Positions 1,160-48,898 of a stretch of DNA of 64,000 bases are shown here, in pieces. The first letter of the stretch is position 1. Each line of letters starts with the position of its first letter. Origin of the DNA: Pseudomonadota bacterium (GTDB lineage: Bacteria > Myxococcota_A > Polyangia > Polyangiales > JAKSBK01); contig JAKSBK010000095.1 of NCBI GenBank assembly GCA_022361155.1, forward strand, positions 27,462 through 91,461. The letters run 5' to 3'. The notes below the pieces were generated by a model. It saw only the letters and a list, made by a program, of their open reading frames with translations. It did no database searches and was not told the origin of the DNA. The position numbers and the translations under genes were made by a program.

Positions 1160-3187
1160 GTGGACATGCGATTGAGCTTTTCTTTGCTTCGGGGGGTTGG
1201 AGCAGCGCTCATCCTGCCGCTGGCGGCATGCAGCGGCGACACGCCCGTACGGACGGCCGGGACCGGAGGGCAGGCCGGTACGGTTGGTGTGGGCGGCCGG
1301 GCCGGCACGATCGGTGTGGGCGGCCGGGCCGGCACGATCGGTGTGGGCGGCCAAGGCGGCACGATTGGTGTAGGCGGCCGGGCCGGCACGATCGGTCTGG
1401 GTGGCCAGGGCGGCACGATCGGTCTGGGTGGCCAGGGCGGTGGCTTTGGCGGCATGGGTGTAGCCGGAGTAGGCGCCGGTGTGGGCGGTACTGTCGTTGG
1501 CCCGGGTGGCTTCGGCGGCATCGGCGGCCCTGCGGGCATGGGCACGCCGCCCGATCCATTGACCGGGGCATGTTTGGTTCCAGGCACCTTGCAGTGCTTT
1601 GGCCAGTGCGTGGACTACAACCAGGACATCTTCAACTGCGGCGGCTGCGGTGTGATATGCGAGCCGGGCGCGGGATGCATAGCAGGCGCATGCCTGTGTC
1701 CACCGGGGAGCGTCGACTGCGTCGACGCTTGCGCGAATCTGCTGACATCGCCTACGGACTGCGGCGCGTGCGGCATCAATTGCGGTCCGGGCGGCGTTTG
1801 CGTCAACGGGCAGTGCCAGTGCCCTCCCGGCACCCAGCAGTGCAACCCACCCGGCCCTGCGACCCAGGCCTGCTTCACGAACTTCGAGTCGGATCCCTTC
1901 AACTGCGGCGGCTGCGGGGACTCCTGCGCGGTGGGCGAAATCTGCGTCGGCGGCCAGTGCCAGTGCGCGATTCCAGGCCAACAGGTCTGCGATGGTCAGT
2001 GCACGGACTTCCTGAACAACCCCTTTGACTGCGGTGGCTGCAACCAGCCCTGTGGGCCGGGAGGGTTTTGTGCCAACGGCCAGTGCCAGTGCGCGCCCGG
2101 GCAGCAGTACTGCCCGAATACTGGCTGCGCAAACCTCAACATGGATCCGCTCAGCTGCGGTGGATGCGACAACCAGTGCGATCCAGGCGCGCTGTGCATC
2201 GGCGGCACCTGCACCTGCTCCGGACAGACCTGCAACTTCAATCCGCCGGGCCCCGGAGGCTCACAGCAGCGCTGCGTAAACGGCGGATTCAACATCGACC
2301 CCATGAACTGCGGCAGCTGCGGCAACGAGTGCGGTCCCGGCAGCATGTGCCTGAACGGCCAGTGCTTGTGCCCGCCTCCAACCGTTGCGTGCACCCCGGG
2401 CGGTCCCGGCACGGTGGGCCTGAACACCTGCGCCAACCTGCTCACCGATCCGCTCAACTGTGGAACCTGCGGCACGGCGTGCGCATCGGGCGCCACCTGC
2501 GCCGGCGGTGTCTGCCAGTGTCCGCCCGGCCTGACCGCTTGCCCTCACGGCTGCGTCAATACGATGACGAACCCGCAGGACTGCGGCATCTGCAACAACG
2601 CCTGCCCGTCCGGTGGCGACTGCCTCAACGGCCAGTGCCTACCTTGCCCGCCAGGGCGCCAATTCTGCGGCGGCGGCTCGGTGCAGACGGCAGAGGGCTG
2701 CCGCCTGAGCACACCCAACTGGGAAGACACCGACCCGTTTAACTGCGGTATGTGCGGATTCCGGTGTCCGCGGGGCGCACACTGCGAGGGTGGCCAGTGC
2801 ATTTGCCCGCCTGGCGAGATCAACTGCGGTCGTTTCTGTGCGCTCCCCGGGCACTGCCCAGAGTACGCCCAGTGCACGCGGAATCCCAACATGGGAGGCG
2901 GCTTCTGCCGGCCCAACGGCCAATGCCGGGACAACGACGTGTGCTGCCGGCGTAGCGCTAGCACGGGTTCGTGGTGCGCCGACCCATGCAGCAGCAACGC
3001 GGAGTGTCCGCCAGCACCCTTTGCACTTCCGGTCCCGAATCCCGCCGTTCCGGTTTGTCAGGACATCGGTGGTGGGCGCTGTGCCCTGGATTGCACGTTC
3101 GGCCGCCAGTGTCCTTTGGGCATGCGCTGCCGCTCGGTGCCGTTCGGCGGCGGTGGAAATAACCCCTCCCAGATCTGTACCTGGTAG
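1160..3187 (+). CDS. secreted lipoprotein with Gly-rich nonapeptide repeats and nine Cys-rich (Stig1-like) repeats
   Basis: Signal peptide with lipobox LAAC (Cys24). Six to seven GG[RQ][AG]GT[IV]G[VL] repeats. Nine copies of [DN]P.[ND]CG.CG..C..G..C..G.C.C. A further Cys-rich tail follows. Confidence 0.85.
   Translation: MDMRLSFSLLRGVGAALILPLAACSGDTPVRTAGTGGQAGTVGVGGRAGTIGVGGRAGTIGVGGQGGTIGVGGRAGTIGLGGQGGTIGLGGQGGGFGGMGVAGVGAGVGGTVVGPGGFGGIGGPAGMGTPPDPLTGACLVPGTLQCFGQCVDYNQDIFNCGGCGVICEPGAGCIAGACLCPPGSVDCVDACANLLTSPTDCGACGINCGPGGVCVNGQCQCPPGTQQCNPPGPATQACFTNFESDPFNCGGCGDSCAVGEICVGGQCQCAIPGQQVCDGQCTDFLNNPFDCGGCNQPCGPGGFCANGQCQCAPGQQYCPNTGCANLNMDPLSCGGCDNQCDPGALCIGGTCTCSGQTCNFNPPGPGGSQQRCVNGGFNIDPMNCGSCGNECGPGSMCLNGQCLCPPPTVACTPGGPGTVGLNTCANLLTDPLNCGTCGTACASGATCAGGVCQCPPGLTACPHGCVNTMTNPQDCGICNNACPSGGDCLNGQCLPCPPGRQFCGGGSVQTAEGCRLSTPNWEDTDPFNCGMCGFRCPRGAHCEGGQCICPPGEINCGRFCALPGHCPEYAQCTRNPNMGGGFCRPNGQCRDNDVCCRRSASTGSWCADPCSSNAECPPAPFALPVPNPAVPVCQDIGGGRCALDCTFGRQCPLGMRCRSVPFGGGGNNPSQICTW
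1265..1426 (+). repeat. 27-bp in-frame tandem repeat (6 units plus a degenerate 7th) encoding GGRAGTIGV
   Basis: Units start at 1265, 1292, 1319, 1346, 1373 and 1400. Units 2 and 3 are identical (ggcggccgggccggcacgatcggtgtg). Confidence 0.9.
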
Positions 3188-3245: not shown

Positions 3246-5489
3246 CTAACGGTTGGCTTCGTCGAGACGCCGCATGCCTTCCAGGAGCAGGCTCTCTGGA
3301 GGCAGCTGGATTATGCGTTGATCGGGCTGAGCGTGGGGATCGAGCTCGAACTCGCCGCTCGTGAGCACGAGCATGGCGTAGAACGCCTCCTCTCCGGTGA
3401 GCTCGCCGAAGCACGCGCCAAAGATCTGCCCCTCGCTGAAGTCGATGCTGCCTTTCTGGCGGTTGGCCGAGATCGAGAGCCGTCCGCTCTTGCGTCCGTG
3501 AAACAGGATTTGGACCACGTCGGGCAACGACATCTCGCTGAGCGAGCCACTGACGCCGCGTTTGCCCTTGCGGTCTTTGGGCTTCGCGAGCACCTGCTGA
3601 ATCTTCAGCGCTACTACGTCCGCAGCCGAGGGTTTTGTGATGTAGTCGGCGGCCCCGAGCTCGAAGCCCTTTTGCACACTCGCGCTGGATGCGTGCCGCG
3701 TCAAGAAGATGAACGGTACCTCCGCAGTCCCTTTCGTCTCACGGATCTTGCGTAGCAGATCGAAGCCGTCTCGAGGCGAGAGCTCCACTTCACTGACGAT
3801 GACATCGAAGTCGGTGCCAGCCATTTCCTGAAGCGCCCTTTGCGAGTCGCGCACAGCGGTGACGTCGAAGCCGCGTTCGATCAGCCTCAGCTCGAGCACG
3901 GTAGCCTCTTCCGGATCCGGCTCCACGAGCAGCGCGCTGCCGCTGCCGGAAAGGAGCTTCGCGCGCAGATCGTCGCCCAACACGACGTAACGGAACAGAT
4001 CGATCAGATTGGGATCGAACAGCACGCCCCCGTGCTCGGCCAGCTGCTCCCACGCTTCCTGCGCCGAGAGCTTCCTGCCGGCGGGGTTGCGTGCACGGCT
4101 CGTGAGGTCGGTGTAACTCTCCACGATGGCGAGCACTCGAGACCCAAGGGGAATCCCGGAGCCGCTCAGCCGATCCGGAAAGCCCGTGCCGTTGTAGCGC
4201 TCATACAGGTGCATGAGCGACTTGATCGCGCTCTTGGGCAGACGCACGGACTCGAACAGCTTGATCGGCGTGAGGTAGCTCTTGCGAGCGCGCGCGTTGT
4301 GGCTGTCGTACTGGGCGACGTTGAACGCAGTCAGGTGAGGACTGGCGCTCTTGCCAACGTCGTGCAGGTAGGCGGCAGTCAGAAGAGCGTCCGCTTCCTC
4401 GCCGGACAAACCGAGCCGCTCACCCATGCGCCTGCAGATCCTGCAGACCTGCGCGGAGTGGCCCCGGAGCTCGTCCCGGTCCTGCTCGAGCAACGTCACC
4501 AGCACATTGAGCGTCTCGAGGTAGTCGTGGCGTGGGACCGCCCGCGTCGCTGCCGCGTCGTGGGTGGCAACCGCGCTATCGATGCGGGCGGGCTCGGCTG
4601 CTGCTGCCTCGGGAGGAGCCGCGGCTTCAGGGGCTACCCCGGCAGGTGGCAGCGGCGCCAAGCCTTGAGCTCGGCGATCGAGGACGGAGACCGGAACCGT
4701 CGCCTCTTGACCACCGAGCAAGACGGCGACGGGCGCTGGAAGTCCCGCCGGCGCCTGCGCAGCCGTGTCCAGGCCCGGACCAGCCACCGGTGCGATGGGC
4801 ACGGCGCGCGGCAGCTCCCGGGGGGGCTCCGAGGACGGCCCGCGATCCGTGTCGGCGGCTGGGATAGGATGGTCCGGGCCCTTGGTGGGCGTCGAGACCC
4901 AGGGAGCGGCCGGGAGCGACAAGGACGCCGAACTGTCCATCGAGCCCGCGTACCGCTCCAGGTTGCGGAAGGCCGCTCGGTCGCCGTCGTAATGCAGTGC
5001 AATCGCCGCGCGGATGGCGCCCGTGCGAGCAAGCAGGAGCTTGACGCGCCTGACGCGACTCGCGAACTGAAGATGCTTGCTGAGCTCCAGGTCCGTTGGG
5101 TCGTTCACCAGTACGAACAAGGTGTGCTGGCCGCCGTCGTAGCGCACCGGAAACGCCCCGAGCTCGTGCGCGACCTTCGCAGGTAGCAGCTTGAGCAGGG
5201 CCGGGCTCAGACGAAGCCGCTCGAGCTTGGAGGTCGACAGAAACTGGGTCCGGCATAGCTTGCCCAGGATCTTGAGCAGCTCGAGCTCGGGAAGGATCCC
5301 CAAATCTACGATGGCGTCGTCCAACCCGCACCCGAAGTTGTAGGCATGCTGCTCGCAAGCGTTTGCTTGCGCCTGTGTCAGCTGTCCTTGGCTAACGAGT
5401 CGCCGCAGGGTACGGGCGCCGGCACTGGAGGAACCTGATCGACCCACAGATTTGACTAGTGTAGCGCACGCGCGGGCGAACCGAAGCAT
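3246..5489 (-). CDS. multidomain c-di-GMP signalling protein: T2SSE_N/MshEN-like, Pro/Ala linker, HD-GYP, response-regulator receiver, DUF4388
   Basis: N-terminus LVSQGQLTQAQANACEQ...LVNDPTDLELSKHLQF resembles the GspE N-terminal domain. HD-GYP motifs are GHSAQV..AAYLHDVGK and ERYNGTGFPDRLSG..IPLGSR. The REC domain has ALLVEPD..DVIVSEVEL..DYITKP. The C-terminal segment is GSLSEMSLPDVVQILFHGRKSGRL (DUF4388). Confidence 0.85.
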   Translation of the reverse strand: MLRFARACATLVKSVGRSGSSSAGARTLRRLVSQGQLTQAQANACEQHAYNFGCGLDDAIVDLGILPELELLKILGKLCRTQFLSTSKLERLRLSPALLKLLPAKVAHELGAFPVRYDGGQHTLFVLVNDPTDLELSKHLQFASRVRRVKLLLARTGAIRAAIALHYDGDRAAFRNLERYAGSMDSSASLSLPAAPWVSTPTKGPDHPIPAADTDRGPSSEPPRELPRAVPIAPVAGPGLDTAAQAPAGLPAPVAVLLGGQEATVPVSVLDRRAQGLAPLPPAGVAPEAAAPPEAAAAEPARIDSAVATHDAAATRAVPRHDYLETLNVLVTLLEQDRDELRGHSAQVCRICRRMGERLGLSGEEADALLTAAYLHDVGKSASPHLTAFNVAQYDSHNARARKSYLTPIKLFESVRLPKSAIKSLMHLYERYNGTGFPDRLSGSGIPLGSRVLAIVESYTDLTSRARNPAGRKLSAQEAWEQLAEHGGVLFDPNLIDLFRYVVLGDDLRAKLLSGSGSALLVEPDPEEATVLELRLIERGFDVTAVRDSQRALQEMAGTDFDVIVSEVELSPRDGFDLLRKIRETKGTAEVPFIFLTRHASSASVQKGFELGAADYITKPSAADVVALKIQQVLAKPKDRKGKRGVSGSLSEMSLPDVVQILFHGRKSGRLSISANRQKGSIDFSEGQIFGACFGELTGEEAFYAMLVLTSGEFELDPHAQPDQRIIQLPPESLLLEGMRRLDEANR

Positions 5490-5555
5490 CTATGGGCCCA
5501 CCCGGGAGCGAACTTTGCCGCTTCGTCGCCTCCGGCTACCTCGGGGTGCGACCGG

Positions 5556-6080
5556 ATGATGCATGTATGCCATGCTGGGCAGCGTGGCATGAACCGAGGG
5601 ATTGCCAGGTATCCCATCGTGGCGGCAGGCAGCGACCGCCTTGGCGGTCTTTTTGCCCGGCTCGCGTCATGGGCCCGCTCCGTGTGGAATTTCGCTACCT
5701 GCGTAGCCCTAATCACGTTGCCGATGCCGGCGCGCTCGCAGGATGCTCCGCAAGCGACCACCCCTCGGCCCTGCTCTTTGCTCTGGCGGCGCGTCAACAG
5801 CCCTGCGCACGCCAGAGCGGACGTGCTCGTCGCTCAAGCCCGGGCTCACCTGAAGGCGTTCTCGCGCGCGAGGCAGCAGCACGCTGGCTGGGTCACGCGG
5901 TGCCGGATCGCCCACGCTCATCCACCGAGTGGAGATTCACGACCGGCGCGCCGTGGTCGCGCGCGTGCCCTGCAGCGCTGGTTGGCGCGGGAGATGCGGG
6001 ATCGGGTGCACCTCGACAACGCGCTGGCCCGGCTGGAGCAGGCTCGACGACTCGCGCCGTCGGATCCCGCCATACTCTAG
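5556..6080 (+). CDS. hypothetical protein (possible signal peptide; weak call)
   Basis: 174-codon ORF with high third-position GC. It has a hydrophobic stretch WNFATCVALITLPMPARSQD. I recognise no family. It is convergent with the AOS gene. Confidence 0.3.
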   Translation: MMHVCHAGQRGMNRGIARYPIVAAGSDRLGGLFARLASWARSVWNFATCVALITLPMPARSQDAPQATTPRPCSLLWRRVNSPAHARADVLVAQARAHLKAFSRARQQHAGWVTRCRIAHAHPPSGDSRPARRGRARALQRWLAREMRDRVHLDNALARLEQARRLAPSDPAIL

Positions 6081-6102
6081 CTGCCTTGGCTCACGTAAAG
6101 GA

Positions 6103-7332
6103 CTAGGGCTCCATCGGTCCGAGATCCTCTCCCGACAACACATAGAAGGCTTCACCGTAGGCCGCCAGGAGCTCGAGCGCCTTGTCCATGTCCTCGCGGC
6201 TGTGTCCGCGTGTGACATTGAGCCTGAGCCGTTCTTCGCCTTGCTTGACCCCCGGATAGGTGATGGGCACCATCATCACACCGTTTTCGAGCAGGGCCAT
6301 GTGCATGAACAGCGCCTTGCGCTCGTCCCGGCACATGACGGGCATGATGTGGGTGTCGCTGATGCCGAGGTCGAAGCCAATCTGTAGCAGCCTGCTGCGC
6401 ATGTAGCGCGCGTTTTCGTGCAACTCCTGCACCAAGGCCTCCCCCTCTGCCTCCAACATGTCCAAGATCACGGACGCCGTGGCTACGAGCGGCACGGGCA
6501 ACGACGCGCTGAACAGAAAGGAGCGAGCGTAGTGTTGCACGTGCTCGACGACATCGATCGTGCCGAGCAACACGCCCCCGATTGCGCCGAAGGTCTTCGA
6601 AAACGTGGTTACGCTGATCGGAACGCGCCCGCGCAAGCCCAGATGCTCGATCACACCGGTTGCCCGCCTTCCCAGCGTCCCGGTCCCGTGGGCGTCATCG
6701 CAGATCAACACGGCGTCGTGGCGTTCACAAACCTCCACCAGCTCGGCGAGTCGGGCCATGTCCCCGTCGAGGGAATAGATGCCCTCCACGAGAACCAAAG
6801 CGTTGGGGCGATCGCTGGTCCTCAGGCAGCGTTCAAGCGAGCGAGCGGAGTTGTGATTGAAGAAGCGTACTTCCGGTTGCCGGCCGGGAGTACCTGCCGC
6901 CAGAAAGGTACCGTCCAAGATGCAGGCATGGCTCAGATTGTCGAGGACGATCGTCGTGTCCTTGTCAGCCAGCGACATGATCGTCCCGACCATGGCCTGG
7001 TAGCCGGTTGTGAAGATCAGCGCCCTGTCGTAACCGAACCAGGCCGCGAGGCGTTCTTCGAGCTCCACATGCGCTGTAGTCGTGGCCTGGACACGCGACG
7101 AGCTGAGCCCGCACGCGAACCGATCTACCGCGGCTCTGGCAGCCTGCTTCACCAGAGGATGCGTGGTTAGGCCCAAGTAGTCGTTGGAGCTGAAGTTGAC
7201 GATCGGTTTGCCCTGGATCGTGGTATGCAATCCCCCGCTTTCGAAGGGCCTGAAGAACGGGTAGACTTGACGGCTTTGTGCGTCGCGCACGCGCGACAGC
7301 TGCGAACGTGCCTTGTCGTCAGCCCAGCTCAT
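6103..7332 (-). CDS. alpha-oxoamine synthase family PLP enzyme (serine palmitoyltransferase / 8-amino-7-oxononanoate synthase-like)
   Basis: Motifs VNFSSNDYLGL, DDAHGTG and the PLP-lysine context TFSKTFGAIGG. Start taken at ATG 7332 (MSWADDK), which overlaps the upstream gene stop by 14 nt. The longer track ORF (to 7572) runs into the upstream gene. Confidence 0.9.
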   Translation of the reverse strand: MSWADDKARSQLSRVRDAQSRQVYPFFRPFESGGLHTTIQGKPIVNFSSNDYLGLTTHPLVKQAARAAVDRFACGLSSSRVQATTTAHVELEERLAAWFGYDRALIFTTGYQAMVGTIMSLADKDTTIVLDNLSHACILDGTFLAAGTPGRQPEVRFFNHNSARSLERCLRTSDRPNALVLVEGIYSLDGDMARLAELVEVCERHDAVLICDDAHGTGTLGRRATGVIEHLGLRGRVPISVTTFSKTFGAIGGVLLGTIDVVEHVQHYARSFLFSASLPVPLVATASVILDMLEAEGEALVQELHENARYMRSRLLQIGFDLGISDTHIMPVMCRDERKALFMHMALLENGVMMVPITYPGVKQGEERLRLNVTRGHSREDMDKALELLAAYGEAFYVLSGEDLGPMEP

Positions 7333-8533
7333 GACCCTCTTGCTCGCAGCGTCGTACGACCACGACCGAGACGTTGCCATAGTAGCCGAGCGTGATGACG
7401 ACCGCGGTGCGCGGGCGCGAGCGCAGCGCGCGTCCGACGAGCGGCACCACGGGTGCGCCCGCGAACCAGGCCAGCACCGTGGCAAGCGCAAACGCCCCGC
7501 TCGCGCCCAGGGTCTCTCCCAACAGGGCCTTTGGCAGCGCGGTGCTGATGTCGGCTCCGAAAAACTCCTCAACGGCGTTCAGCTCGGTGGAGTCGAAATG
7601 CGGAATGCCGCAAGCCGCGCTGCAAACGACGTCCACGTCCTGCGGGCTCAGACAGGCGTCTGCGAGCGCGTTGCGAAGCGCCCGCAAGATCGCCGACTTC
7701 GACACGTGCACGAGCGAGGCCTCCGAAGGAGGCGGCTCGAAGCCGGCGCCATAGCCCACTATCTCGGCGCGGATGCAGGCGCCTCTGGCTTTGGCGGCCT
7801 CTGGAGGCTCGATGCACAAGTAGACGGCGCCCTCACCCAGCCGCATACCCTTGCTGGCCGGTGAGCCGGGCGCGAAACCGGACGGTTGCTCCGCCAGTGC
7901 CCCCAGCTTGCGGAAGGCCAGGTACAACGGCTCGCTCAGCACTTCGCCGCCGCCCACAAGGAACATGTCGGCTCGATGGTGAGCCAGGTGGTTTTGACTG
8001 CTCAGGACGCCGTCGAGCGCCCCGCAGTTGCCGTCTACGATCGTCACATTCGGCCCACGCAGGTTCTCCCAGATACCCACGTAGGCGGAAGGCGAATTGA
8101 TCACCGTGTTCGGGAATCGATTGGGATTCAGAAAACGAGGATCTTCGAACTCGGCTACCAGATTCAGCTCGGTGATCGCGTCAAGCGAACCGTACGCCGT
8201 GGCCGAGCATACGCCCACGCGTTCGGGTGAGCCCGTGAGGTGCGAACCGTTGCGCTTGATGCGGGCGTCTTCGAGTGCGAGCTTGGCGGCGACGATGAGG
8301 AATTTCGTCAGCCGATCGAAATTACGCAAGCCTTTGCGTCCCAGGTAGGAGCCCGCGTCGAAGTCGCGCACCTGCGCCGCAAGCGTGTTGCCGGCGTGCT
8401 GCGGCGACAACACGTCCAGTGGAGGTCCAAACGCATGTTCGGCCGCGGCCCCGCCTCGCAGCAGCTCGAAAAACCGCCTTCGGCCCACGCCCAAGGGGCC
8501 AACGACGCCCAGTCCGGTGACGGATAGCTTCAC
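7319..8533 (-). CDS. ketosynthase-like partner protein lacking the Cys-His-His triad (CLF/KS-beta-like)
   Basis: Thiolase-fold KS homology begins at KLSVTGLGVVGPLG. The active-site position aligns as DGNCGAL against AACAAGN in the neighbouring KS. The two His positions read AACGIP and LGETLG. Start proposed at GTG 8533. Confidence 0.8.
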   Translation of the reverse strand: MKLSVTGLGVVGPLGVGRRRFFELLRGGAAAEHAFGPPLDVLSPQHAGNTLAAQVRDFDAGSYLGRKGLRNFDRLTKFLIVAAKLALEDARIKRNGSHLTGSPERVGVCSATAYGSLDAITELNLVAEFEDPRFLNPNRFPNTVINSPSAYVGIWENLRGPNVTIVDGNCGALDGVLSSQNHLAHHRADMFLVGGGEVLSEPLYLAFRKLGALAEQPSGFAPGSPASKGMRLGEGAVYLCIEPPEAAKARGACIRAEIVGYGAGFEPPPSEASLVHVSKSAILRALRNALADACLSPQDVDVVCSAACGIPHFDSTELNAVEEFFGADISTALPKALLGETLGASGAFALATVLAWFAGAPVVPLVGRALRSRPRTAVVITLGYYGNVSVVVVRRCEQEGHELG

Positions 8534-8547
8534 CAGGGCACCCGGTG

Positions 8548-8594
8548 CGTCAAGGGCCCGCGGAAGAATAGCTCGTGTGTTTCGGCGAGGACCG
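8548..8594 (-). repeat. copy 1 of a ~50-nt intergenic repeat family (in the KS / KS-like spacer)
   Basis: The minus-strand sequence is cggtcctcgccgaaacacacgagctattcttccgcgggcccttgacg. It matches copy 2 at 34/39 positions and copy 3 at 38/51 positions (hand alignment, no gaps). Confidence 0.75.
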
Positions 8595-8702
8595 GGCGCC
8601 GCTGGCGAGGCGCGACGAGGAGTATTGGGGATACTTCGAGGAGGAGCAACATGGCCAGCGGTGGTCGGAACCGGCGAAGTGGATGGGTTATTCTTCCGGG
8701 CC

Positions 8703-9935
8703 CTAGGACAACGCCGTTTCGGGCAGGCGACCCGCGCGGGCGAACGCGAGCACCGCATCGTAGCCACCAAAGGCAAGGGCGTTGTTCAAGACCACACCGC
8801 TCGGTCCCCGAGTAGCCTGGTTCGCCACCAGGTTGATGTCGCATTCGGGGTCCGGCGTTTCGTAGCCGACCGTGGGGGGGTAGACGCCAGTTTGCACCGT
8901 CATCACGCAGGAGACGGCTTCGAGCGCGCTAGCGGCACCCATGCAGTGACCCAGCATGCCCTTCATGCTGCTTACGGGAACGGGGCGCTCGCCAAACACT
9001 TCGCGAATCACGCGCGACTCGATGCGATCGTTGGCGTGGGTACCCGTGCCGTGTGCATTGATGAAGTCCACTTCATCCACGGCAAGTCCGCTTTCGTCGA
9101 TGGCGGCTTGCATTGCTGTGCGGATCCCGGCGCCCTCGGGGTGCGGGCGGGTGATGTGATGAGCGTCGCAAGCGAGCCCGCAGCCGCCGATTTCGGCGAG
9201 CGGTGAAGCTCCGCGTGCGGCCGCGTGACGCTCGGATTCCAGAATGAGCATTGCCGCACCCTCACCCAGGATGAGGCCCTTTCTGTTCTTGTCGAACGGC
9301 TGGCAACGCTGCCGTGCCATAGCCCCCAAGCGCACGAAGCCAGCGAACTCGAGACGCTGCAGGATCTCACTGGCTCCGCTGATGGCGACGTCGGCACGGC
9401 CGGCGCGGATGTGGTCCGCTGCAAAACCAATGGCATAATTGCCGGCCGCACATGCCGCGGGCAGTGTTTGAACCATGCCCTGCGCGCCAAACGCCCGAGC
9501 GATGTGAATCGGCAGCAGCGTCGTGCCGTATCGGGGGATCTTGCCTTTGTCCACCGCCTCCACGCCCTCGCGGAACCATGTGCTCTCGAGCTCTCCGATG
9601 ATATCGGCCTCACCCATGGTGGTGCCTACAACGACCGCGGTGCGCTCGCCGGCGAGCAGGCCGCTGTCGAGCTTTGCGTCCTCCACGGCCATGCGCGCCG
9701 CCGCGAGCCCGAAGGCGGAGCAGCGGCCCATCCGGCGTGCCTCGGCCCCGGTCAGGAAGTCACGGGGCCGGAAGCCCTTGACCTCCCCGGCAAAGCACCG
9801 GTCGAGGCCGCGCGTGTCGAAGGTCTCGATCGGGCTGAAGCCGCAGCGTCCCGCCACCATGGAATCCCAGAACGCCGTGCGTCCAAGACCCAGCGAGCTA
9901 ACAACCCCCAGACCGGTAACAAAGACTCGCCCCAT
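8703..9935 (-). CDS. beta-ketoacyl-ACP synthase (FabF/KAS II-like, catalytically complete)
   Basis: MGRVFVTGLGVV N-terminus. Active-site Cys in LPAACAAGNYA. His in NAHGTGTHAND and GMLGHCMGAAS. Start taken at ATG 9935. Confidence 0.9.
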   Translation of the reverse strand: MGRVFVTGLGVVSSLGLGRTAFWDSMVAGRCGFSPIETFDTRGLDRCFAGEVKGFRPRDFLTGAEARRMGRCSAFGLAAARMAVEDAKLDSGLLAGERTAVVVGTTMGEADIIGELESTWFREGVEAVDKGKIPRYGTTLLPIHIARAFGAQGMVQTLPAACAAGNYAIGFAADHIRAGRADVAISGASEILQRLEFAGFVRLGAMARQRCQPFDKNRKGLILGEGAAMLILESERHAAARGASPLAEIGGCGLACDAHHITRPHPEGAGIRTAMQAAIDESGLAVDEVDFINAHGTGTHANDRIESRVIREVFGERPVPVSSMKGMLGHCMGAASALEAVSCVMTVQTGVYPPTVGYETPDPECDINLVANQATRGPSGVVLNNALAFGGYDAVLAFARAGRLPETALS

Positions 9936-9971
9936 GCGAGTGGACCTATGAGCGCACGTGACAGCTTCTAG

Positions 9972-10015
9972 CCAATCGTGACACCTTGCGCAAGCAAGGC
10001 GCATCGGCCGATTGG
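9972..10015. promoter_or_regulatory. nested inverted repeats in the divergent promoter region of the biosynthetic cassette
   Basis: Outer arms are CCAATCG (9972-9978) and CGATTGG (10009-10015). Inner arms are CCTTGC (9984-9989) and GCAAGG (9994-9999). They overlap the palindrome TTGCGCAA (9986-9993). Confidence 0.3.
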
Positions 10016-10040
10016 CCTAAATCCAAGGTGCTTGCCGCGC

Positions 10041-10069
10041 TTGACAGCTCCTGAACCTGCCCATAGATA
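10041..10069 (+). promoter_or_regulatory. candidate sigma-70-type promoter for the FAAL-ACP-ACP-thioesterase operon
   Basis: TTGACA (10041-10046), a 17-nt spacer, then TAGATA (10064-10069), about 75 nt upstream of the FAAL start. Confidence 0.4.
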
Positions 10070-10142
10070 GTGCGCCCACCCGAAACCTGGGACCGAGCAT
10101 GAGGCGCCGCCGCAGGGTCGATGGGCGTTGCTTTGCCGGTCC

Positions 10143-11843
10143 ATGCGACCGCGTTGTGATGGCGTGACCCAGCCCGCAGCACAGACGCTCGTTTCCGCGC
10201 TCGAGCAGCTGCCCAACGACAGCGAGCGAGGCTTCCGCTTCCTCGACCCGCAGGGGCAGGAGCGCAACTACCCCCAACGAGCGATCCGCGCCGAAGCCAA
10301 GCGCCGCGCCGCGCTGTTGCTACAGCACGGCCTGCGCAAGGGTGACCGGGTCGTCGTCGCCGTTGCTCAGGAAGACGAGTTCGTGCTGAGCTTCCTTGGT
10401 GCGGTGGTGGCCGGTCTGGTGCCGGTCCCGGTATCCGCAACCCCTTTGCTCAGAGCGGTCGATGGCCACCTTGGCACGCTGCGCCATGTGAGTCGGGCCT
10501 CCGGAGCGCGGGCTGTCGTCGTGATGGAACGCAACCGCTCGCTCCTTGGGGAGTTGTGGGATGGCCAAGATTTCGCGCCCCGGTTGCTCAGTGTGGAGGC
10601 AGACTTGGCGGGTGCACCGCAAGCGGACGTCGCCCTACCCCGGGTGACCCCCCAAGATCCATGTTTTGTGCAGTTCACCTCGGGCAGCACGGCGCTGCCC
10701 AAAGGCGTGACGATCACGCATGCCAACCTGGTCCGAAATGCCCGAGATTTCCTGGGGCCTTCGGGGCTCGATCGACGCGACGACGATCTTGGGGTGAGCT
10801 GGCTGCCGCTGTTTCACGATATGGGATTGATCGGCTTCATCTTGGGCACGCTGATCTGCGATATCCCGGTGGTTATCCTGCCCACGGCTGCCTTCGCGCG
10901 CAATCCGCGCAGCTGGCTCGAAACGATTCACAGCGTCAGAGGCACGATCACCTATGCCCCGAACTTCGCATACGGGTTGGCTGCCAAGCGCCTGCGCGAG
11001 CGCGATCTGGCTCGTTTGGACCTGAGCTGTCTACGCGTCGCCGGCTGCGGGGCAGAGCCGATCAACCCCGACACGATGCGCGCCTTTGCCCGGCGCCTCC
11101 AGCCGACCGGTTTTCGAGCCGAGGCCTTGCTGCCGTCGTACGGCATGGCGGAGGCAACACTCGCGATCACTTTTCATCCGCATGGCACGCCCCTGGCTAC
11201 CGACCGCGTCGATTCGGTGGCGCTCAGGGCTGGGCGAGCGACGCAAAGCGAGCGTGTCGCGCAAAGCACCGAGCTGGTTTCCTGCGGCCGGCCCTTTCCG
11301 GGCCATGAGCTGCGTACCGTCGACGAGCAGGGCCGGAAGCTTGGGGATCGGCAGGTAGGCGAAATCGTGGTGCGGGGTCCCAGCGTGAGCCCGGGCTACC
11401 ATAACGATCCAGCGGCGAGCGCTGCCAGCTTCAGAAACGGATGGTTGCACACGGGCGACCTCGGCTACCTGGCGGGCGGCAATCTGTACATTTGTGGGCG
11501 CGTCAAAGACCTCATTATCGTCCGCGGAGCGAACTACTACCCGCAGGACATCGAATGGTTGGTGAGCAGTCTTGAGGGCGTTCGGCGTGACAACGCGATC
11601 GCGTTTGGTGTGGTGCAGGACGGCGAGGAGCGGCTCGTCGTGGCGGCGGAGTGTGCCTCTGCGGACGCGCAACGGCTGCGCGAGGCCATCGCCGCCCGGG
11701 TCTCCGAGGCCACCGGGCTGGCTGTTGCTCGCGTCAGCGCCGTGCGGATCGGTGCCCTACCCAAGACGACCAGCGGAAAAGTTCAGCGACGCAAGACCAA
11801 GCAGCTCTTCGAGGAGGGGAAGCTCGAGGAGCACGGTCCCTGA
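10143..11843 (+). CDS. fatty acyl-AMP ligase (FAAL / FadD32-like adenylating enzyme)
   Basis: FVQFTSGSTALPKGV (A3 core), WLPLFHDMGLIGF, GDLGY, the insertion-containing FAAL-style C-terminal half, and LPKTTSGKVQR. The start is ambiguous (TTG 10128, ATG 10143 or GTG 10164). Confidence 0.88.
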   Translation: MRPRCDGVTQPAAQTLVSALEQLPNDSERGFRFLDPQGQERNYPQRAIRAEAKRRAALLLQHGLRKGDRVVVAVAQEDEFVLSFLGAVVAGLVPVPVSATPLLRAVDGHLGTLRHVSRASGARAVVVMERNRSLLGELWDGQDFAPRLLSVEADLAGAPQADVALPRVTPQDPCFVQFTSGSTALPKGVTITHANLVRNARDFLGPSGLDRRDDDLGVSWLPLFHDMGLIGFILGTLICDIPVVILPTAAFARNPRSWLETIHSVRGTITYAPNFAYGLAAKRLRERDLARLDLSCLRVAGCGAEPINPDTMRAFARRLQPTGFRAEALLPSYGMAEATLAITFHPHGTPLATDRVDSVALRAGRATQSERVAQSTELVSCGRPFPGHELRTVDEQGRKLGDRQVGEIVVRGPSVSPGYHNDPAASAASFRNGWLHTGDLGYLAGGNLYICGRVKDLIIVRGANYYPQDIEWLVSSLEGVRRDNAIAFGVVQDGEERLVVAAECASADAQRLREAIAARVSEATGLAVARVSAVRIGALPKTTSGKVQRRKTKQLFEEGKLEEHGP

Positions 11844-12117
11844 TCCGCATCGGTCACCAGCTTCCGGCACGAAGGTGGTGCGCCAAGGTCAGGCCGACCA
11901 GCTCCCGCGAGCTCAGGTGGCGCTGCGGCACGCGCCTGCTATAGCGCGGTGCGGTCCATGGGCGATCGCCCGGCTGCAACCTTGCTGCTGATGGGTCCCA
12001 GGGTACCGAAACGCCGCCAAAGTCAAGTGTCATGAACGAGCCAATCTGCGTGGACGACCGGGGGGGTTTGCGCGTATAAGGCATGCTGCGCGCGCCTCAT
12101 GGAGAGAAGGAGCGGAG

Positions 12118-12372
12118 ATGACTCGGGCTGAGCTGTTGGAGATGTTTCGATCCATGGCGAGCGAGATCGCGGAGAAGGATTTCAGCCATGTGGCCGAGGA
12201 CGCCGCGATCAAGGATCTGGGAATCGACTCCCTGGGTATGCTCGAGCTGGTCGGTGAGATGGAACGTACCCTGGAGGTACGCATTCCCGATGACAACCTG
12301 GTGGGTGTGCAGACCGTCCGGCAGTTGCTCGAACTGGTAGAGCGGCGCTTGCGCCCGATTCGGACGGCGTGA
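12118..12372 (+). CDS. acyl carrier protein
   Basis: 84 aa with phosphopantetheine motif LGIDSLGMLELV. A strong SD (gaaggagcggag) sits before the ATG. Confidence 0.9.
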   Translation: MTRAELLEMFRSMASEIAEKDFSHVAEDAAIKDLGIDSLGMLELVGEMERTLEVRIPDDNLVGVQTVRQLLELVERRLRPIRTA

Positions 12373-12491
12373 TCTTGACCAGCGGCAACTCGGCAAGGGC
12401 AAGGCTGGTGTACGCTGGCTGAGCGGGGCGCGCGCAGGACGCGGACAGGTAGACGGCGGATCCAAGAGCGATGCACGATCCAGGGGAAAGC

Positions 12492-12725
12492 ATGGGCCGG
12501 CAAGAACTGAGGGAGAAGCTACGGGCCATCGTTGCCGAGGTTAGCGAGGTCGACGATGTGCCCGACTCCAAGCCATTCAAAGACCTGGGCATCGACTCGA
12601 TGATGGCGATCGAGATCGTGGCGGAGGTGGAGCGGACCTTCCGGATCAAGATCCCGGAGGAGGAACTGGAGCAGATCACCAACCTGGATAGCGTGGTCGC
12701 GCTGGCTGAGGCCAAGCTGGCGTGA
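12492..12725 (+). CDS. acyl carrier protein (second, divergent copy)
   Basis: Motif LGIDSMMAIEIV. ATG 12492 is preceded by aggggaaagc. ATG 12471 is an alternative start. Confidence 0.88.
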   Translation: MGRQELREKLRAIVAEVSEVDDVPDSKPFKDLGIDSMMAIEIVAEVERTFRIKIPEEELEQITNLDSVVALAEAKLA

Positions 12726-12741
12726 GCGCAGACGCGCACCC

Positions 12742-13155
12742 ATGCAGCCCCCCCCGCAGGCCCGAACCAGCATCTATCGCCGCGTGGTCGACTACGTGGA
12801 CAGCGACCAGAGCGGAGTGGTGCATCATTCTGCGTACTTTCGCTACCTCGAAGCTGCGCGCATCGATCTGCTCGAGGCACGGGGACTGTGCTACGCGCGC
12901 ATGGAACGCGAGCAGCGGCTTGGCCTGCCGGTGGTGGAGGCGCAGCTTTGGTACCGTTCCCCAGCGCGCTGCGGGGATGCCCTGGTCGCGCTGAGCTGGA
13001 TCGGCCTCTTGACCGCAGCGCGCCTGTGCGTAGAGACGAACCTGGAACACGAAGGACGCCTGGTCCTCGAGGCGCGGATCACGCTCGCCTGCGTCGATCT
13101 ACGTACCGGACGAGCCCGCAGGCTGCCGGAGCAGCTACGCACAGCGCTTGGCTAG
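12742..13155 (+). CDS. hotdog-fold acyl-CoA/ACP thioesterase (4HBT / YbgC-like)
   Basis: 137 aa with VDSDQSGVVHHSAYFRYLEAARIDLL, typical of the 4HBT family. It starts 17 nt after the second ACP. Confidence 0.8.
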   Translation: MQPPPQARTSIYRRVVDYVDSDQSGVVHHSAYFRYLEAARIDLLEARGLCYARMEREQRLGLPVVEAQLWYRSPARCGDALVALSWIGLLTAARLCVETNLEHEGRLVLEARITLACVDLRTGRARRLPEQLRTALG

Positions 13156-22478: not shown

Positions 22479-23624
22479 CTACCCCAGCGCCCAGAAGGCG
22501 GCGGCCACAGCCCCAGCCACGCTGAGGCCGAGCGCAAAGCCCACGAGGACCAGGGGCACGGGCGAGCGCGCGCTCGGCGGTGGTGTGGGCGTGGCCGCGG
22601 CCGAGCTGCCGACTCCCACGTGCGCGTCGTTGGATGGAGCCGACACCGGCCCAGTCGGCTCGGTGGCAGCGGCCCGCGCGGACCGGGTCTTCGTGCTTGG
22701 GACGGCCGCGCCCGCTATCGCATGGCGCGCGCTACTGACGGCGGCGCCTGTTAGGCAGCCCTTGAGCGCGAGCCCGAATTCCGCGGCAGTAGGATAGCGC
22801 TTGCCCGCGTCCTTCTCGAGCGCCTTCATGATTGCGGTCTCGAGCTGGGCCGAGAATTGCTTGCTCTTGCTGCGATCGTTGAGTCGAATGGGCTCGCTGG
22901 TCACCTGGGCCTTCATGAACTCGAGCGCGTTGCGCGCGTCAAAGGGCAACCTGCCGGTGAGCAGCTCGTACAAGATCATGCCGAGCGCGTAGATGTCCGA
23001 GCGTGCGTCGAGCTCCTTGCCCTGGGCTTGTTCCGGGCTCATGAACTCCGGCGTCCCAAACACCATGCCCTGCTTGGTCAAGATGATCGAGTCGGGCCGC
23101 ATCTGCTTTTGGGTGACCTTGGCCAGTCCGAAATCGAGCACCTTCGGGTAGTCGCGGATGCCACCCTGCTGGGTCAGGAAGATGTTCTCCGGCTTCAGAT
23201 CGCGGTGAATGATGCCCAGCTTGTGGGCCTCGTCGAGTGCGCCGCAAACCTGTACCATGATGTTGAGCGCTCGCTCCGGCCCCATGGGGCCTTCGGCGCG
23301 CACGACCTGGGCCAGATTCCGCCCCTTCAGGTACTCCATTACGAAGTAGGCGCAACCGTTGTCGAGCTCGCCGAAAAGGAATACCCGGGCGGTATGGGGA
23401 TGAGACAGCTGACTCATGGCGCGCGCCTCACGCCGGAAGCGCGCGCTCACGTCGGCTCGCGCAGCGTACTTGGAATGCAGCACCTTGATAGCCACTTCGC
23501 GGTTCATGCTGGGCTGCTGGGCCAGATAAACCGAGCCCATGCCTCCGGTGCCGATCCTCGACGTGATGCGAAACTGCCCTGCAACCTCTTTGCCCAGGAG
23601 GGAGTCAGCCACAGCACTCAGCAT
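22479..23624 (-). CDS. Ser/Thr protein kinase with C-terminal membrane anchor
   Basis: GTGGMGSVYLA, AIKVL, HRDLKPENIFL, DFGLAK, and GTPEFMSPEQ. The C-terminal TM helix is PLVLVGFALGLSVAGAVAAAFWAL. Confidence 0.92.
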   Translation of the reverse strand: MLSAVADSLLGKEVAGQFRITSRIGTGGMGSVYLAQQPSMNREVAIKVLHSKYAARADVSARFRREARAMSQLSHPHTARVFLFGELDNGCAYFVMEYLKGRNLAQVVRAEGPMGPERALNIMVQVCGALDEAHKLGIIHRDLKPENIFLTQQGGIRDYPKVLDFGLAKVTQKQMRPDSIILTKQGMVFGTPEFMSPEQAQGKELDARSDIYALGMILYELLTGRLPFDARNALEFMKAQVTSEPIRLNDRSKSKQFSAQLETAIMKALEKDAGKRYPTAAEFGLALKGCLTGAAVSSARHAIAGAAVPSTKTRSARAAATEPTGPVSAPSNDAHVGVGSSAAATPTPPPSARSPVPLVLVGFALGLSVAGAVAAAFWALG

Positions 23625-23715: not shown

Positions 23716-24882
23716 GTGACAACGAGCCGCCCACCAGCGAGGCACGCCTCGCCTTACCCGTACGGGCGCTGGCCCAAGCTGAGCCGCGGCCAGGTGGAGC
23801 TGCTCCGTCGCTGCGTGCACCGATTCGCTGGTATCGAACTGGGTATGGCTCTCGATACCGCCAGCAAGCTGCTCGGCGCGCCCGTACGGTTCCGACTCAC
23901 CGGGGCTCGGCCGGGGCCGCCCGAAGATGCCTTGCCGCCGGATGGCCGGCCCGTGGTGGTCGCGGTGATCGACGACGCCGCAGGCCATTTGTGGGTCGCT
24001 GAGATCGACCAGCTGCTGGCGGCCGTGGTGGTGGACCGTGCGCTCGGGGGCGACGGCAACTCGGGCATCGGGCGCGGGGTGTTCCCAGCGGACGAGTTCT
24101 CCAAGGGGGTGCTGGCCTACGTGCTGGCACGTTTACTGGCTCCCAGCGGGCAATGCTTGTGCGCGATCGATGTCCGACCCGAACGGATCAGCTCCCTGAA
24201 GCGGTCAGCGCCCTGCGATGCCGGCGCGTGCTTCGAGGTCTGGGTCGAGCCCGTCCGCGGCCATGTGCAGCTGTGGACCAGCGCGTCCGCGTGGTCCTCT
24301 TGCGGCGCGCCGCAGCTGCCCCCGGCCCGACTGCCGGACACGCTTGCGCGCACACTGCCGTTTGCGCTAGCCGCCGACGCGGGCCAGGCCCAGCTCGAGC
24401 TTTCGGAGCTGCGGTCGCTGCTCCCTGGCGACATACTGGTGCCTGACGCCTGCGCGCTGTGCAGGGTCGAAGACGGCTGGCGGGGCCGAGCAGAGCTATC
24501 GCTCGGGGGCACAAAGCACACGCACTGCTCCTGCCATGTGCACGATGAGGCTCTGGTGATCGAGCGTGTTCTTCGAGTACAAGACGGGGCCATGGGCGAC
24601 AGCAAGTCTCACGAAGCGGAACAGGAGCCTTTTGACCCGCTCGTCCCCGCAGGCGACACACCGATCGAGCTTCGAGTGGAGCTCGCTCGCTTCCATCTGA
24701 CCCTGGCGGAGCTCGCAGCCCTACAGCCCGGTCAGGTCCTGAGCACGGGACGGCGGATAGGGGAGCACGTGGTGTTGCGAGCCGGCCCGGCGGCCATGGC
24801 CACGGGCGAGCTCGTGGACATCGAAGGCGAGGTCGGCGTGCGCATCGTTCGCGTGGCCGAGGACCCGGCCGCGGCTTCTTGA
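23716..24882 (+). CDS. SctQ/YscQ/FliN-like protein (SpoA domain at C-terminus)
   Basis: The C-terminal ~70 aa, IELRVELARFHLTLAELAALQPGQVLSTGRRIGEHVVLRAGPAAMATGELVDIEGEVGVRIVRV, fits the FliN/SpoA pattern. GTG start. Confidence 0.7.
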   Translation: MTTSRPPARHASPYPYGRWPKLSRGQVELLRRCVHRFAGIELGMALDTASKLLGAPVRFRLTGARPGPPEDALPPDGRPVVVAVIDDAAGHLWVAEIDQLLAAVVVDRALGGDGNSGIGRGVFPADEFSKGVLAYVLARLLAPSGQCLCAIDVRPERISSLKRSAPCDAGACFEVWVEPVRGHVQLWTSASAWSSCGAPQLPPARLPDTLARTLPFALAADAGQAQLELSELRSLLPGDILVPDACALCRVEDGWRGRAELSLGGTKHTHCSCHVHDEALVIERVLRVQDGAMGDSKSHEAEQEPFDPLVPAGDTPIELRVELARFHLTLAELAALQPGQVLSTGRRIGEHVVLRAGPAAMATGELVDIEGEVGVRIVRVAEDPAAAS

Positions 24883-48731: not shown

Positions 48732-48898
48732 ACTAGTCCTTCAACCGCGTGACCTCGATCGCCCTCACGGCCGGTCTGGCGCCGTCTTCCGCGTCCTCCT
48801 CCTTGAAATGGGACCTGCCATTCCTGTGTCGTCGTCCTTGCATCCGGCACCAGCTCCACCGCGATCATCGATCAATGTCACGCGTTTGAAGGACTAGT
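48732..48898 (-). promoter_or_regulatory. long-range 20-nt inverted repeat (19/20) bracketing the intercistronic spacer
   Basis: The arms are 48732-48751 (actagtccttcaaccgcgtg) and 48879-48898 (cacgcgtttgaaggactagt). The upstream arm contains the PP2C stop codon. The downstream arm contains the GAAGGA Shine-Dalgarno 5 nt before GTG 48731. Confidence 0.5.

Follow-up and report, generated by a model that had tools for sequence, protein, structure and literature searches.

A conserved Polyangia protein family that joins a motif-less MshEN-fold domain, an HD-GYP domain with replaced metal ligands and a predicted pseudo-receiver to a PATAN domain

PatA-type regulators of cyanobacteria (PixE, PixG, LsiR and PatA) join an N-terminal PATAN domain to a phosphorylatable receiver (REC) domain, with PATAN as the output that binds the N-terminal region of PilB1 as well as PilC's N-terminal domain (PilC-NTD). 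The PATAN domain of Synechocystis PixE alone binds PilC-NTD and the GspE-N-containing N-terminal region of PilB1 and alone suffices for phototaxis reversal, and some PATAN proteins carry a GspE_N domain, a co-occurrence noted in the same study (bioRxiv 10.1101/2021.06.11.447907). PATAN proteins of Myxococcus xanthus co-occur with the pilus regulator SgmX (PMC11580455). A second group of related proteins, the RpfG-family and NosR REC-HD-GYP phosphodiesterases of c-di-GMP (cyclic diguanosine monophosphate), carry an HD-GYP and a REC domain in one polypeptide. Here we describe a 747-aa protein that combines a GspE-N/MshEN-fold domain, an HD-GYP domain, a REC domain and a PATAN domain, and that is encoded in a 64,000-nucleotide stretch (hereafter the window) of contig JAKSBK010000095.1 from a bacterium of the Polyangia. 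The hallmark residues of classical binding, catalysis or phosphorylation are missing from three of the four domains, so that, as judged from its residues, the protein is less likely a c-di-GMP phosphodiesterase that senses its own substrate than a scaffold or adaptor.

The gene is an uninterrupted open reading frame (ORF) of 747 codons plus a stop at window positions 3246–5489 on the minus strand, the strand to which all coordinates within the gene refer. The ORF list and translation, the G+C content at codon positions 1, 2 and 3 (0.70, 0.48 and 0.79, a coding-type bias that is strong against the 63–69% G+C of the window) and at least 116 full-length homologues identify it as a real and complete gene. 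Read directly from the DNA, the putative start codon is an ATG at position 5489, the first possible start following a stop, and an in-frame GTG is at codon 15; no clear ribosome-binding site was seen, and alignments with homologues start at around residue 6–26. The first 20 residues (5430–5489) form an unconserved tail of low model confidence.

An earlier note on this DNA had proposed the order GspE-N/MshEN, linker, HD-GYP, REC and DUF4388, and Pfam recovers this order far beyond chance: MshEN (PF05157) at residues 89–172 (E = 3.7e-13), HD_5 (PF13487) at 329–495 (E = 4.4e-21) with HD (PF01966) at 343–403, Response_reg at 520–626 (E = 5.8e-18), and DUF4388/PatA_N (PF14332) at 647–745 (E = 6.7e-23, profile positions 1–121 of 122). 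The current name of DUF4388 is PatA_N, and the domain is called PATAN in the literature. In a full-length AlphaFold2 model built on a 117-sequence alignment, the four domains fold confidently, with most 10-residue blocks inside them averaging a predicted local distance difference test score (pLDDT) above 90, and residues 1–20 and about 186–316 are disordered (pLDDT below 50). The latter segment (4542–4934) is a Pro/Ala-rich linker, with 34 Ala and 25 Pro (59) among the 145 residues from 176 to 320. Judged by pLDDT it spans about 130 aa, and the flanking Pfam domains lie about 155 aa apart; both figures are below the roughly 190 aa first estimated. In homologues its length ranges from 61 to 265 aa.

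The protein is one of a conserved family rather than an isolated fusion. At least 116 full-length homologues retrieved in a protein search share its four Pfam domains and are 45–53% identical to it overall, and 254 relatives came to light in GTDB species genomes, scanned at one genome per species. All named records among 80 listed relatives are from the Polyangia (Sandaracinaceae and Polyangiaceae), and include Chondromyces apiculatus DSM 436, Polyangium spp., Byssovorax and Sorangium. When the HD-GYP segment alone was compared with 1.84 billion representative proteins, 145 matches at E ≤ 1e-30 stood apart from about 16,000 general HD-GYP matches at E ≤ 1e-10. All four domains are present in 96 of the 147 best representatives and the remainder are mostly short fragments or divergent sequences, so the variant HD-GYP domain occurs essentially only in this architecture. 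Below, family counts refer to 117 members, and subfamily counts to up to 142 representatives from the HD-GYP-segment search. Invariant columns are spread unevenly over the protein, with 29 of 103 in PATAN, 28 of 186 in HD-GYP, 8 of 119 in REC and 4 of 165 in the N-terminal domain. The exact 747-aa sequence is not on record among known proteins. A 333-aa metagenome protein fragment in a public protein library (P0138) is 99% identical to the C-terminal part of the protein, and thus the same or a very close organism has already been sampled.

The N-terminal domain (residues 22–185; 4935–5426) consists of a four-helix subdomain (about residues 22–80) and an alpha/beta subdomain (the Pfam MshEN match, 89–172), with pLDDT mostly above 90. 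Its assignment to the GspE-N/MshEN fold, also made in the earlier note, holds up on the Pfam match, the confident model and sequence matches in the PDB found with phmmer, which were headed by PilF (residues 14–114) and included PilB and MshE (5HTL). It thus shares fold and Pfam family with the MshEN domain of MshE/PilB. HMMER aligns residues 31–136 with residues 14–114 of Vibrio cholerae MshE in 5HTL, which places the 53-residue c-di-GMP-binding region of MshE (Arg9–Gln61) on residues 26–78 of the query (5256–5414). That region of MshE contains two tandem 24-residue motifs of the pattern RLGxx(L/V/I)(L/V/I)xxG(L/V/I)(L/V/I)xxxxLxxxLxxQ. Relative to MshE, the query carries the replacements L10T, G11L, I19Q, L25A, L29E and Q32A in the first motif and R38G, G40D and Q61L in the second, the corresponding residues being Thr27/Leu28 (Leu10/Gly11), Ala49 (Gln32), Gly55 (Arg38), Asp57 (Gly40) and Leu78 (Gln61). 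Both motifs therefore lack the glycine at position 3 and the terminal glutamine, and the second also lacks the arginine at position 1, whereas the hydrophobic helix pattern and the turn glycines of MshE (Gly18 and Gly47) are retained.

These replacements are shared across the family (Gly11 to Leu in 96/117, Gln32 to Ala in 104/117, Arg38 to His in 88/117, Gly40 to Glu in 104/117), and the relaxed regular expression that Wang et al. published for the motif matched none of the 117 members while finding both copies (2/2) in the V. cholerae MshE control. In MshE, the G11L and G40I variants show poor, if any, c-di-GMP binding (Wang et al. 2016, PMC5013675), and XpsE has lost binding through a set of similar changes that includes G11V, L29R, R38G, G40L and Q61V (PMC5013675). 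Binding of c-di-GMP is likewise absent from the N-terminal GSPII-A domain of Thermus PilF, owing to small motif deviations, a capping helix and inter-subdomain contacts (PMC12002112). Unlike MshE, and like XpsE and PilF GSPII-A, the query domain has neither the Arg-Leu-Gly start nor the terminal Gln of the 24-residue motifs, and it would not be expected to act as the MshEN-type c-di-GMP receptor that had been proposed. The helical subdomain is the least conserved part of the protein, and the query matches only 6 of its 12 strongly conserved columns. Between the degenerate half-motifs, the family has a conserved loop, A-K-R-R-x-x-H-V-E-E (query residues 49–58; 5316–5345); the loop of the query itself has diverged and reads A-Y-N-F-G-C-G-L-D-D.

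The HD-GYP domain (residues 320–505; 3975–4532) was aligned with PmGH (4MCW), PA4781 (4R8Z), V-cGAP3 (5Z7C) and DvhD (9RBZ), with mutually consistent results. Its HD-GYP fold and HD dyad are sound, as HD_5 matches strongly, His376-Asp377 is invariant in the family and Foldseek retrieves 9rbz as best match (E = 1e-8, template modelling (TM) score 0.73 on target) as well as 4r8z. Residues kept from the canonical site are His344 (His189 in PmGH numbering, as for all canonical residues here), His376-Asp377 (HD dyad), Lys380 (Lys225) and Glu457 (Asp305), the last being Asp or Glu across the subfamily; each of the five positions is conserved in at least 133 of 137–140 aligned representatives. Three of the seven core metal ligands, His250, His276 and His277, are missing. 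His250 is replaced by Tyr405, where representatives of the subfamily differ (Tyr, Val, Phe, His or Ala), and the His276/His277 pair by Leu428/Tyr429 (codons at 4203–4208, confirmed by translation). Among 142 representatives, most have Met or Leu followed by Tyr at this pair and none has His-His; Tyr429 is invariant in the 117 family members and present in 133/142 of the subfamily. A further family-specific residue, His385, is nearly invariant (139/140).

Other functional positions have changed as well. Asp183, the putative general acid, is Arg338; the KPG motif is Asn390-Val391-Ala392; Arg314 is Asn468 (Asn in 116/117); and at the Lys317 position the family has Arg471 and the query Gly. In the GYP loop, which reads G-x-G-F-P, the Gly and Pro are kept and Tyr285 is Phe437 (Phe in 115/117). 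The Arg and Tyr positions of the RxYR motif are Asn and Phe in the family (consensus N-P-F-R), with Ala at the Tyr position in the query, and the Glu185 position varies in the wider subfamily (Glu or Asp in 78/137 only). Five canonical HD-GYP proteins in the same alignment have His-His at 428–429, with Tyr at 437 in four and Arg at 468 in three, which confirms the alignment register. In PmGH, the substitutions H250A, H276A, H277A and D183A each abolish activity (PMC4159591). The motif H…HD…H…HH…D, with a di- or trinuclear centre, is shared by every HD-GYP phosphodiesterase reported, while H…HD…D is the mark of mononuclear sites, found in active phosphatases (PMC8177086). The ligands that survive here are exactly such a mononuclear-type H…HD…D/E tetrad, plus the lysine.

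DvhD of Desulfovibrio vulgaris, the closest structural match, lacks the HD dyad and the His-His pair and is a catalytically inactive, metal-free c-di-GMP receptor, whose ligand is bound by the Lys of KPG, the Tyr of GYP and the Arg and Tyr of RxYR (PMC13090378). The His-His pair is gone in both DvhD and the query family, but the two otherwise differ: DvhD lost the HD dyad (SQ) and kept KPG, the GYP Tyr and RxYR, whereas the query family kept HD and has replaced all of the DvhD-type polar contacts (Asn390, Phe437, Asn468). With both ligand and contact residues replaced, neither hydrolysis nor binding of c-di-GMP would be expected by known criteria, contrary to the phosphodiesterase activity first suggested. 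The 28 invariant columns suggest a domain that has been remodelled rather than merely decayed, and some specific pocket function is likely kept, such as metal binding, another ligand or altered catalysis. Two further residues were considered and set aside. Arg342, invariant and two residues before His344, is no sign of reversion to an HD phosphatase, as canonical HD-GYP proteins also carry Arg there; and His427 is no shifted stand-in for the His-His pair, since position 427 is variable in the wider subfamily.

The REC domain (residues 518–636; 3582–3938) has the receiver fold (Foldseek TM score 0.9 on target). HMMER alignments to the receivers 3gt7 and 3t6k place Glu523/Pro524 of the segment LLVEPDPEE at the positions of CheY Asp12/Asp13, and Glu567 of the segment DVIVSEVEL (codon at 3789–3791, confirmed by translation) at that of the phospho-acceptor Asp57. 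The absence of an acidic DD pair and the Glu in place of the acceptor Asp, both read from the sequence earlier, are thus supported, and the latter is conserved, as 116/117 members of the family and 101/118 representatives of the wider subfamily have this Glu. At the Asp12 position the family has Asp and the query Glu; at the Asp13 position the family has Pro, Ala, Ser or Thr. The switch residues are retained, with Ser or Thr at position 597 (Thr/Ser87) in 117/117, Thr597 in the query, and an invariant Lys619 (Lys109). The domain is therefore best described as a conserved predicted pseudo-receiver that would not accept a phosphoryl group in the normal way, and, with Glu567 for the acceptor and Pro524 for Asp13, the proposal that the protein integrates phosphorylation loses its footing. 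The acceptor Asp is also replaced in other pseudo-receivers, among them the plant pseudo-response regulators (Glu) and M. xanthus FrzS, which serve as interaction or conformational modules. Like these, the query domain pairs a receiver fold with a non-phosphorylatable acceptor position. It may be locked in one conformation, and a fixed ‘on-like’ state is conceivable from the pairing of Glu57 with the retained Thr/Ser87 and Lys109. Many of the best Foldseek matches are BeF3-activated receivers, which we did not accept as evidence of an ‘on’ state.

The PATAN domain (residues 645–747; 3249–3557) is the most conserved part of the protein, with 60 of 62 strongly conserved columns matched by the query. 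Modelled alone, it folds with a pLDDT of 92.5 and a predicted TM score (pTM) of 0.84; no solved structural relative was detectable in searches. As in PatA-type regulators, PATAN adjoins a receiver-fold domain, and the query in addition fuses it to a domain of the GspE-N type, the class of domain present in the PilB1 region that PATAN binds in cyanobacteria. The differences are in order and detail: PatA-type proteins have an N-terminal PATAN followed by a phosphorylatable REC, whereas in the query a REC with a Glu acceptor precedes a C-terminal PATAN. The query also has two domains beyond the PATAN-REC pair, comes from the Polyangia rather than the cyanobacteria, and, in contrast to PatA-type PATAN, shows no alpha-helical insertion in its PATAN model.

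Taken together, hallmark residues are missing from the N-terminal domain, the HD-GYP domain and the receiver, and we favour a model, with a probability of roughly 0.45, in which the protein is a c-di-GMP-blind, non-phosphorylatable adaptor with a PATAN output and possibly a pilus-motor target. Its parts differ in strength. The sequences show the architecture, how well it is conserved and which residues are replaced, from which inactivity, a scaffold role and the pilus-motor target are inferred. That the protein neither binds nor hydrolyses c-di-GMP in a canonical way and is not phosphorylated is probable; that the type IV pilus motor is its specific target is doubtful, and is proposed by analogy with the cyanobacterial PatA-type regulators. 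According to this model, a conserved four-domain cytoplasmic signalling protein would have kept three classical domains as folds with their canonical chemistry switched off. The N-terminal domain would resemble the N-terminus of PilB without its c-di-GMP motif; the HD-GYP pocket, while using c-di-GMP in neither known way, may still hold a metal or another ligand; and the pseudo-receiver, with Glu fixed at the acceptor position, may be held in a single conformation. PATAN, the proposed output, may dock on the type IV pilus motor or, alternatively, on the protein’s own PilB-like N-terminal domain across the flexible linker, in which case the tethered domain could be an internal decoy for PATAN or a second docking module.

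Several observations weigh against this model. The PATAN–PilB link is known only from cyanobacterial PATAN-REC proteins, in which the domain order is reversed, and binding of PATAN to the PilB N-terminal region and PilC-NTD is known for Synechocystis PixE alone. The pTM of the full-length model is 0.45, which bears on the proposed intramolecular contact between PATAN and the N-terminal domain. No pilus, mglA or polarity genes are present beside the gene or in the homologous loci. Finally, His344, His376, Asp377, Lys380, His385, Tyr429 and Asp/Glu457 are nearly invariant, which points to a specific role that the HD-GYP pocket has kept, be it in binding a metal or ligand or in catalysis, and makes a purely inert scaffold unlikely.

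In an unlikely alternative, the HD-GYP domain would be a rebuilt metal-dependent phosphohydrolase that uses the H…HD…D/E tetrad, perhaps aided by His385 and Tyr429, on a substrate other than c-di-GMP. Candidate substrates would be pGpG, 3',3'-cyclic GMP-AMP (3',3'-cGAMP), another nucleotide or a phosphoprotein, and the flanking domains would localise or regulate the enzyme. In favour of it are the conservation of the tetrad and Lys380, of His385 and of Tyr429 at the counts given above, and the 28 invariant columns, which a pseudo-enzyme in decay would not be expected to show. Enzymes with a mononuclear H…HD…D site do act as phosphatases (PMC8177086), and hydrolysis by the M-H metal pair alone is a possibility considered by Bellini et al. 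However, an enzyme of the HD-GYP fold with a mononuclear site is not known (PMC8177086), the putative general acid is an Arg and Glu185 is only loosely conserved, the nucleotide-contact residues are replaced, and the nearest structural match is the inactive DvhD. An extended version of this idea, which we regard as quite improbable, has the re-engineered site (the tetrad with His385 and Tyr429) handle a molecule other than c-di-GMP and gate PATAN through the locked pseudo-receiver, with PATAN engaging either the type IV pilus motor or the protein’s own PilB-mimicking N-terminal domain. If true, the shells of three classical domains would here make up a signalling logic that has not been described before.

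Also improbable is a non-canonical second-messenger receptor, in which a remodelled pocket, either that of the HD-GYP domain or the N-terminal-domain loop with the family K-R-R…H-V-E-E residues, would bind c-di-GMP or another nucleotide and switch the PATAN output. DvhD illustrates that a degenerate HD-GYP domain can receive c-di-GMP (PMC13090378), conserved family-specific polar residues occur in both the N-terminal and the HD-GYP domains, and myxobacteria are reported to use both c-di-GMP and 3',3'-cGAMP. However, the polar contacts of DvhD, PmGH and MshE are all missing, and the query, with Y-N-F-G-C-G-L-D-D in place of the family loop and half of the conserved columns of the helical subdomain lost, argues against an essential ligand site in that loop.

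The reading of the earlier note, a self-sensing enzyme in which a c-di-GMP-binding N-terminal domain exerts allosteric control over an active HD-GYP phosphodiesterase and the receiver adds input of its own, has in its favour the match to all four Pfam families, the automated annotation of relatives as ‘RpfG family c-di-GMP phosphodiesterase’, the conserved HD dyad, Lys380, G-x-G-F-P loop and Asp/Glu457 and the GFP in place of GYP that PA4781 likewise has, but is very improbable, as the two findings named beforehand as speaking against it, an N-terminal domain without the MshEN binding residues (relaxed motif in 0/117, with Leu for Gly11 and Asp/Glu for Gly40) and an HD-GYP domain without its metal ligands, are what the sequence holds, the residues essential in PmGH (His250, His276, His277 and Asp183) being replaced family-wide, KPG, Tyr285 and Arg314 gone, and the receiver carrying Glu for the acceptor Asp and Pro for Asp13.

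The favoured adaptor model also bears on how such proteins are classified. The best NCBIfam match is NF053512 (NosR family), at 132.4 bits against a cut-off of 400 and over the HD-GYP part only, and relatives are labelled ‘RpfG family c-di-GMP phosphodiesterase’ or ‘HD domain-containing phosphohydrolase’ in databases. In contrast to RpfG and NosR, the query has HD-GYP before REC, an incomplete set of metal ligands and a receiver without the acceptor Asp. On these residues, censuses of myxobacterial signalling should probably not list the relatives among the c-di-GMP phosphodiesterases, the MshEN receptors or the phosphorylatable response regulators. Each element is known individually: the four domains themselves, HD-GYP domains that are degenerate, GspE-N domains without the motif, pseudo-receivers, and GspE_N together with PATAN. 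What is new is the combination of all these features in one conserved Polyangia family, and the specific conserved change in HD-GYP, which has other residues at the second-metal site but retains the H…HD…D tetrad. This is not a new kind of system, and it establishes no new principle yet; the finding corrects annotation and offers a testable handle on PATAN function. With its natural fusion of a PilB-like GspE-N domain to PATAN, the conserved family allows a test of the association between these domains that work on phototaxis in cyanobacteria has suggested, and an HD-GYP scaffold with a conserved replacement of the second-metal site is relevant to the evolution of metal sites in HD domains.

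The gene stands alone in the window, with a convergent neighbour at its 3' end and a divergent one at its 5' end, and no c-di-GMP genes are adjacent to it. Elsewhere in the 64-kb window, a scan of about 40 ORFs gave no pilus or PATAN genes, and no polarity or c-di-GMP genes were found among the ORFs scanned in the rest of the window. Context was compared across three long homologous contigs and by ORF clustering across 61 loci. Neighbours vary by clade, comprising a tetratricopeptide repeat (TPR) gene with a block of two ketoacyl synthases (KS) and an AMP-ligase (KS-KS-AMP-ligase), a 1014-aa Ser/Thr kinase, or L13/S9/UvrB/Asd, a set with ribosomal and repair genes, and a conserved operon partner was therefore rejected. 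Only the KS-KS-AMP-ligase block and a TPR remnant are common to the window and the homologous loci. A Ser/Thr kinase of about 1010 aa (Zn-ribbon, Pkinase, AAA_16 and TPR) is encoded two genes downstream of the family gene in 22/61 loci (11077–14121 in L001, 10948–13962 in L002 and 11382–14438 in L003) and is absent from the window; its proximity could reflect synteny or a functional link.

The product of the convergent neighbour (1160–3187, plus strand) is 675 aa long and has Cys-rich repeats of the Stig1-like type (PF04885, E = 1.4e-22); the gene stands in a place where homologous loci have an unrelated gene of 223–262 aa. The divergent neighbour is a short ORF (5556–6080, plus strand) that weakly resembles (35.6% over 104 aa) the TPR protein encoded divergently upstream of the homologues, and is probably a truncated or diverged TPR gene; a longer overlapping ORF (5492–6106) has a non-coding codon bias. 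Beyond it lies a small lipid or polyketide-like block (6103–13155), with a class I/II aminotransferase (6103–7572, minus), two ketoacyl synthases (7319–8776 and 8703–10004, both minus), a DIP2-like AMP-ligase (10128–11843, plus) and a 4HBT thioesterase (12742–13155, plus). Its KS-KS-AMP-ligase part, with acyl carrier protein genes, is syntenic with the homologous loci L001 and L003.

Farther along the window, a Ser/Thr kinase gene (22479–23624, minus) adjoins a gene for a 388-aa protein with a FliN C-terminal domain (23716–24882, plus; PF01052, E = 1.4e-18); no other flagellar genes turned up among the window ORFs scanned. Two more signalling genes, unrelated to the finding, encode a PP2C phosphatase fused to a cyclic-nucleotide-binding domain (48894–50180, minus) and a protein with two FHA/YscD-cytoplasmic-like domains (57930–59633, minus).

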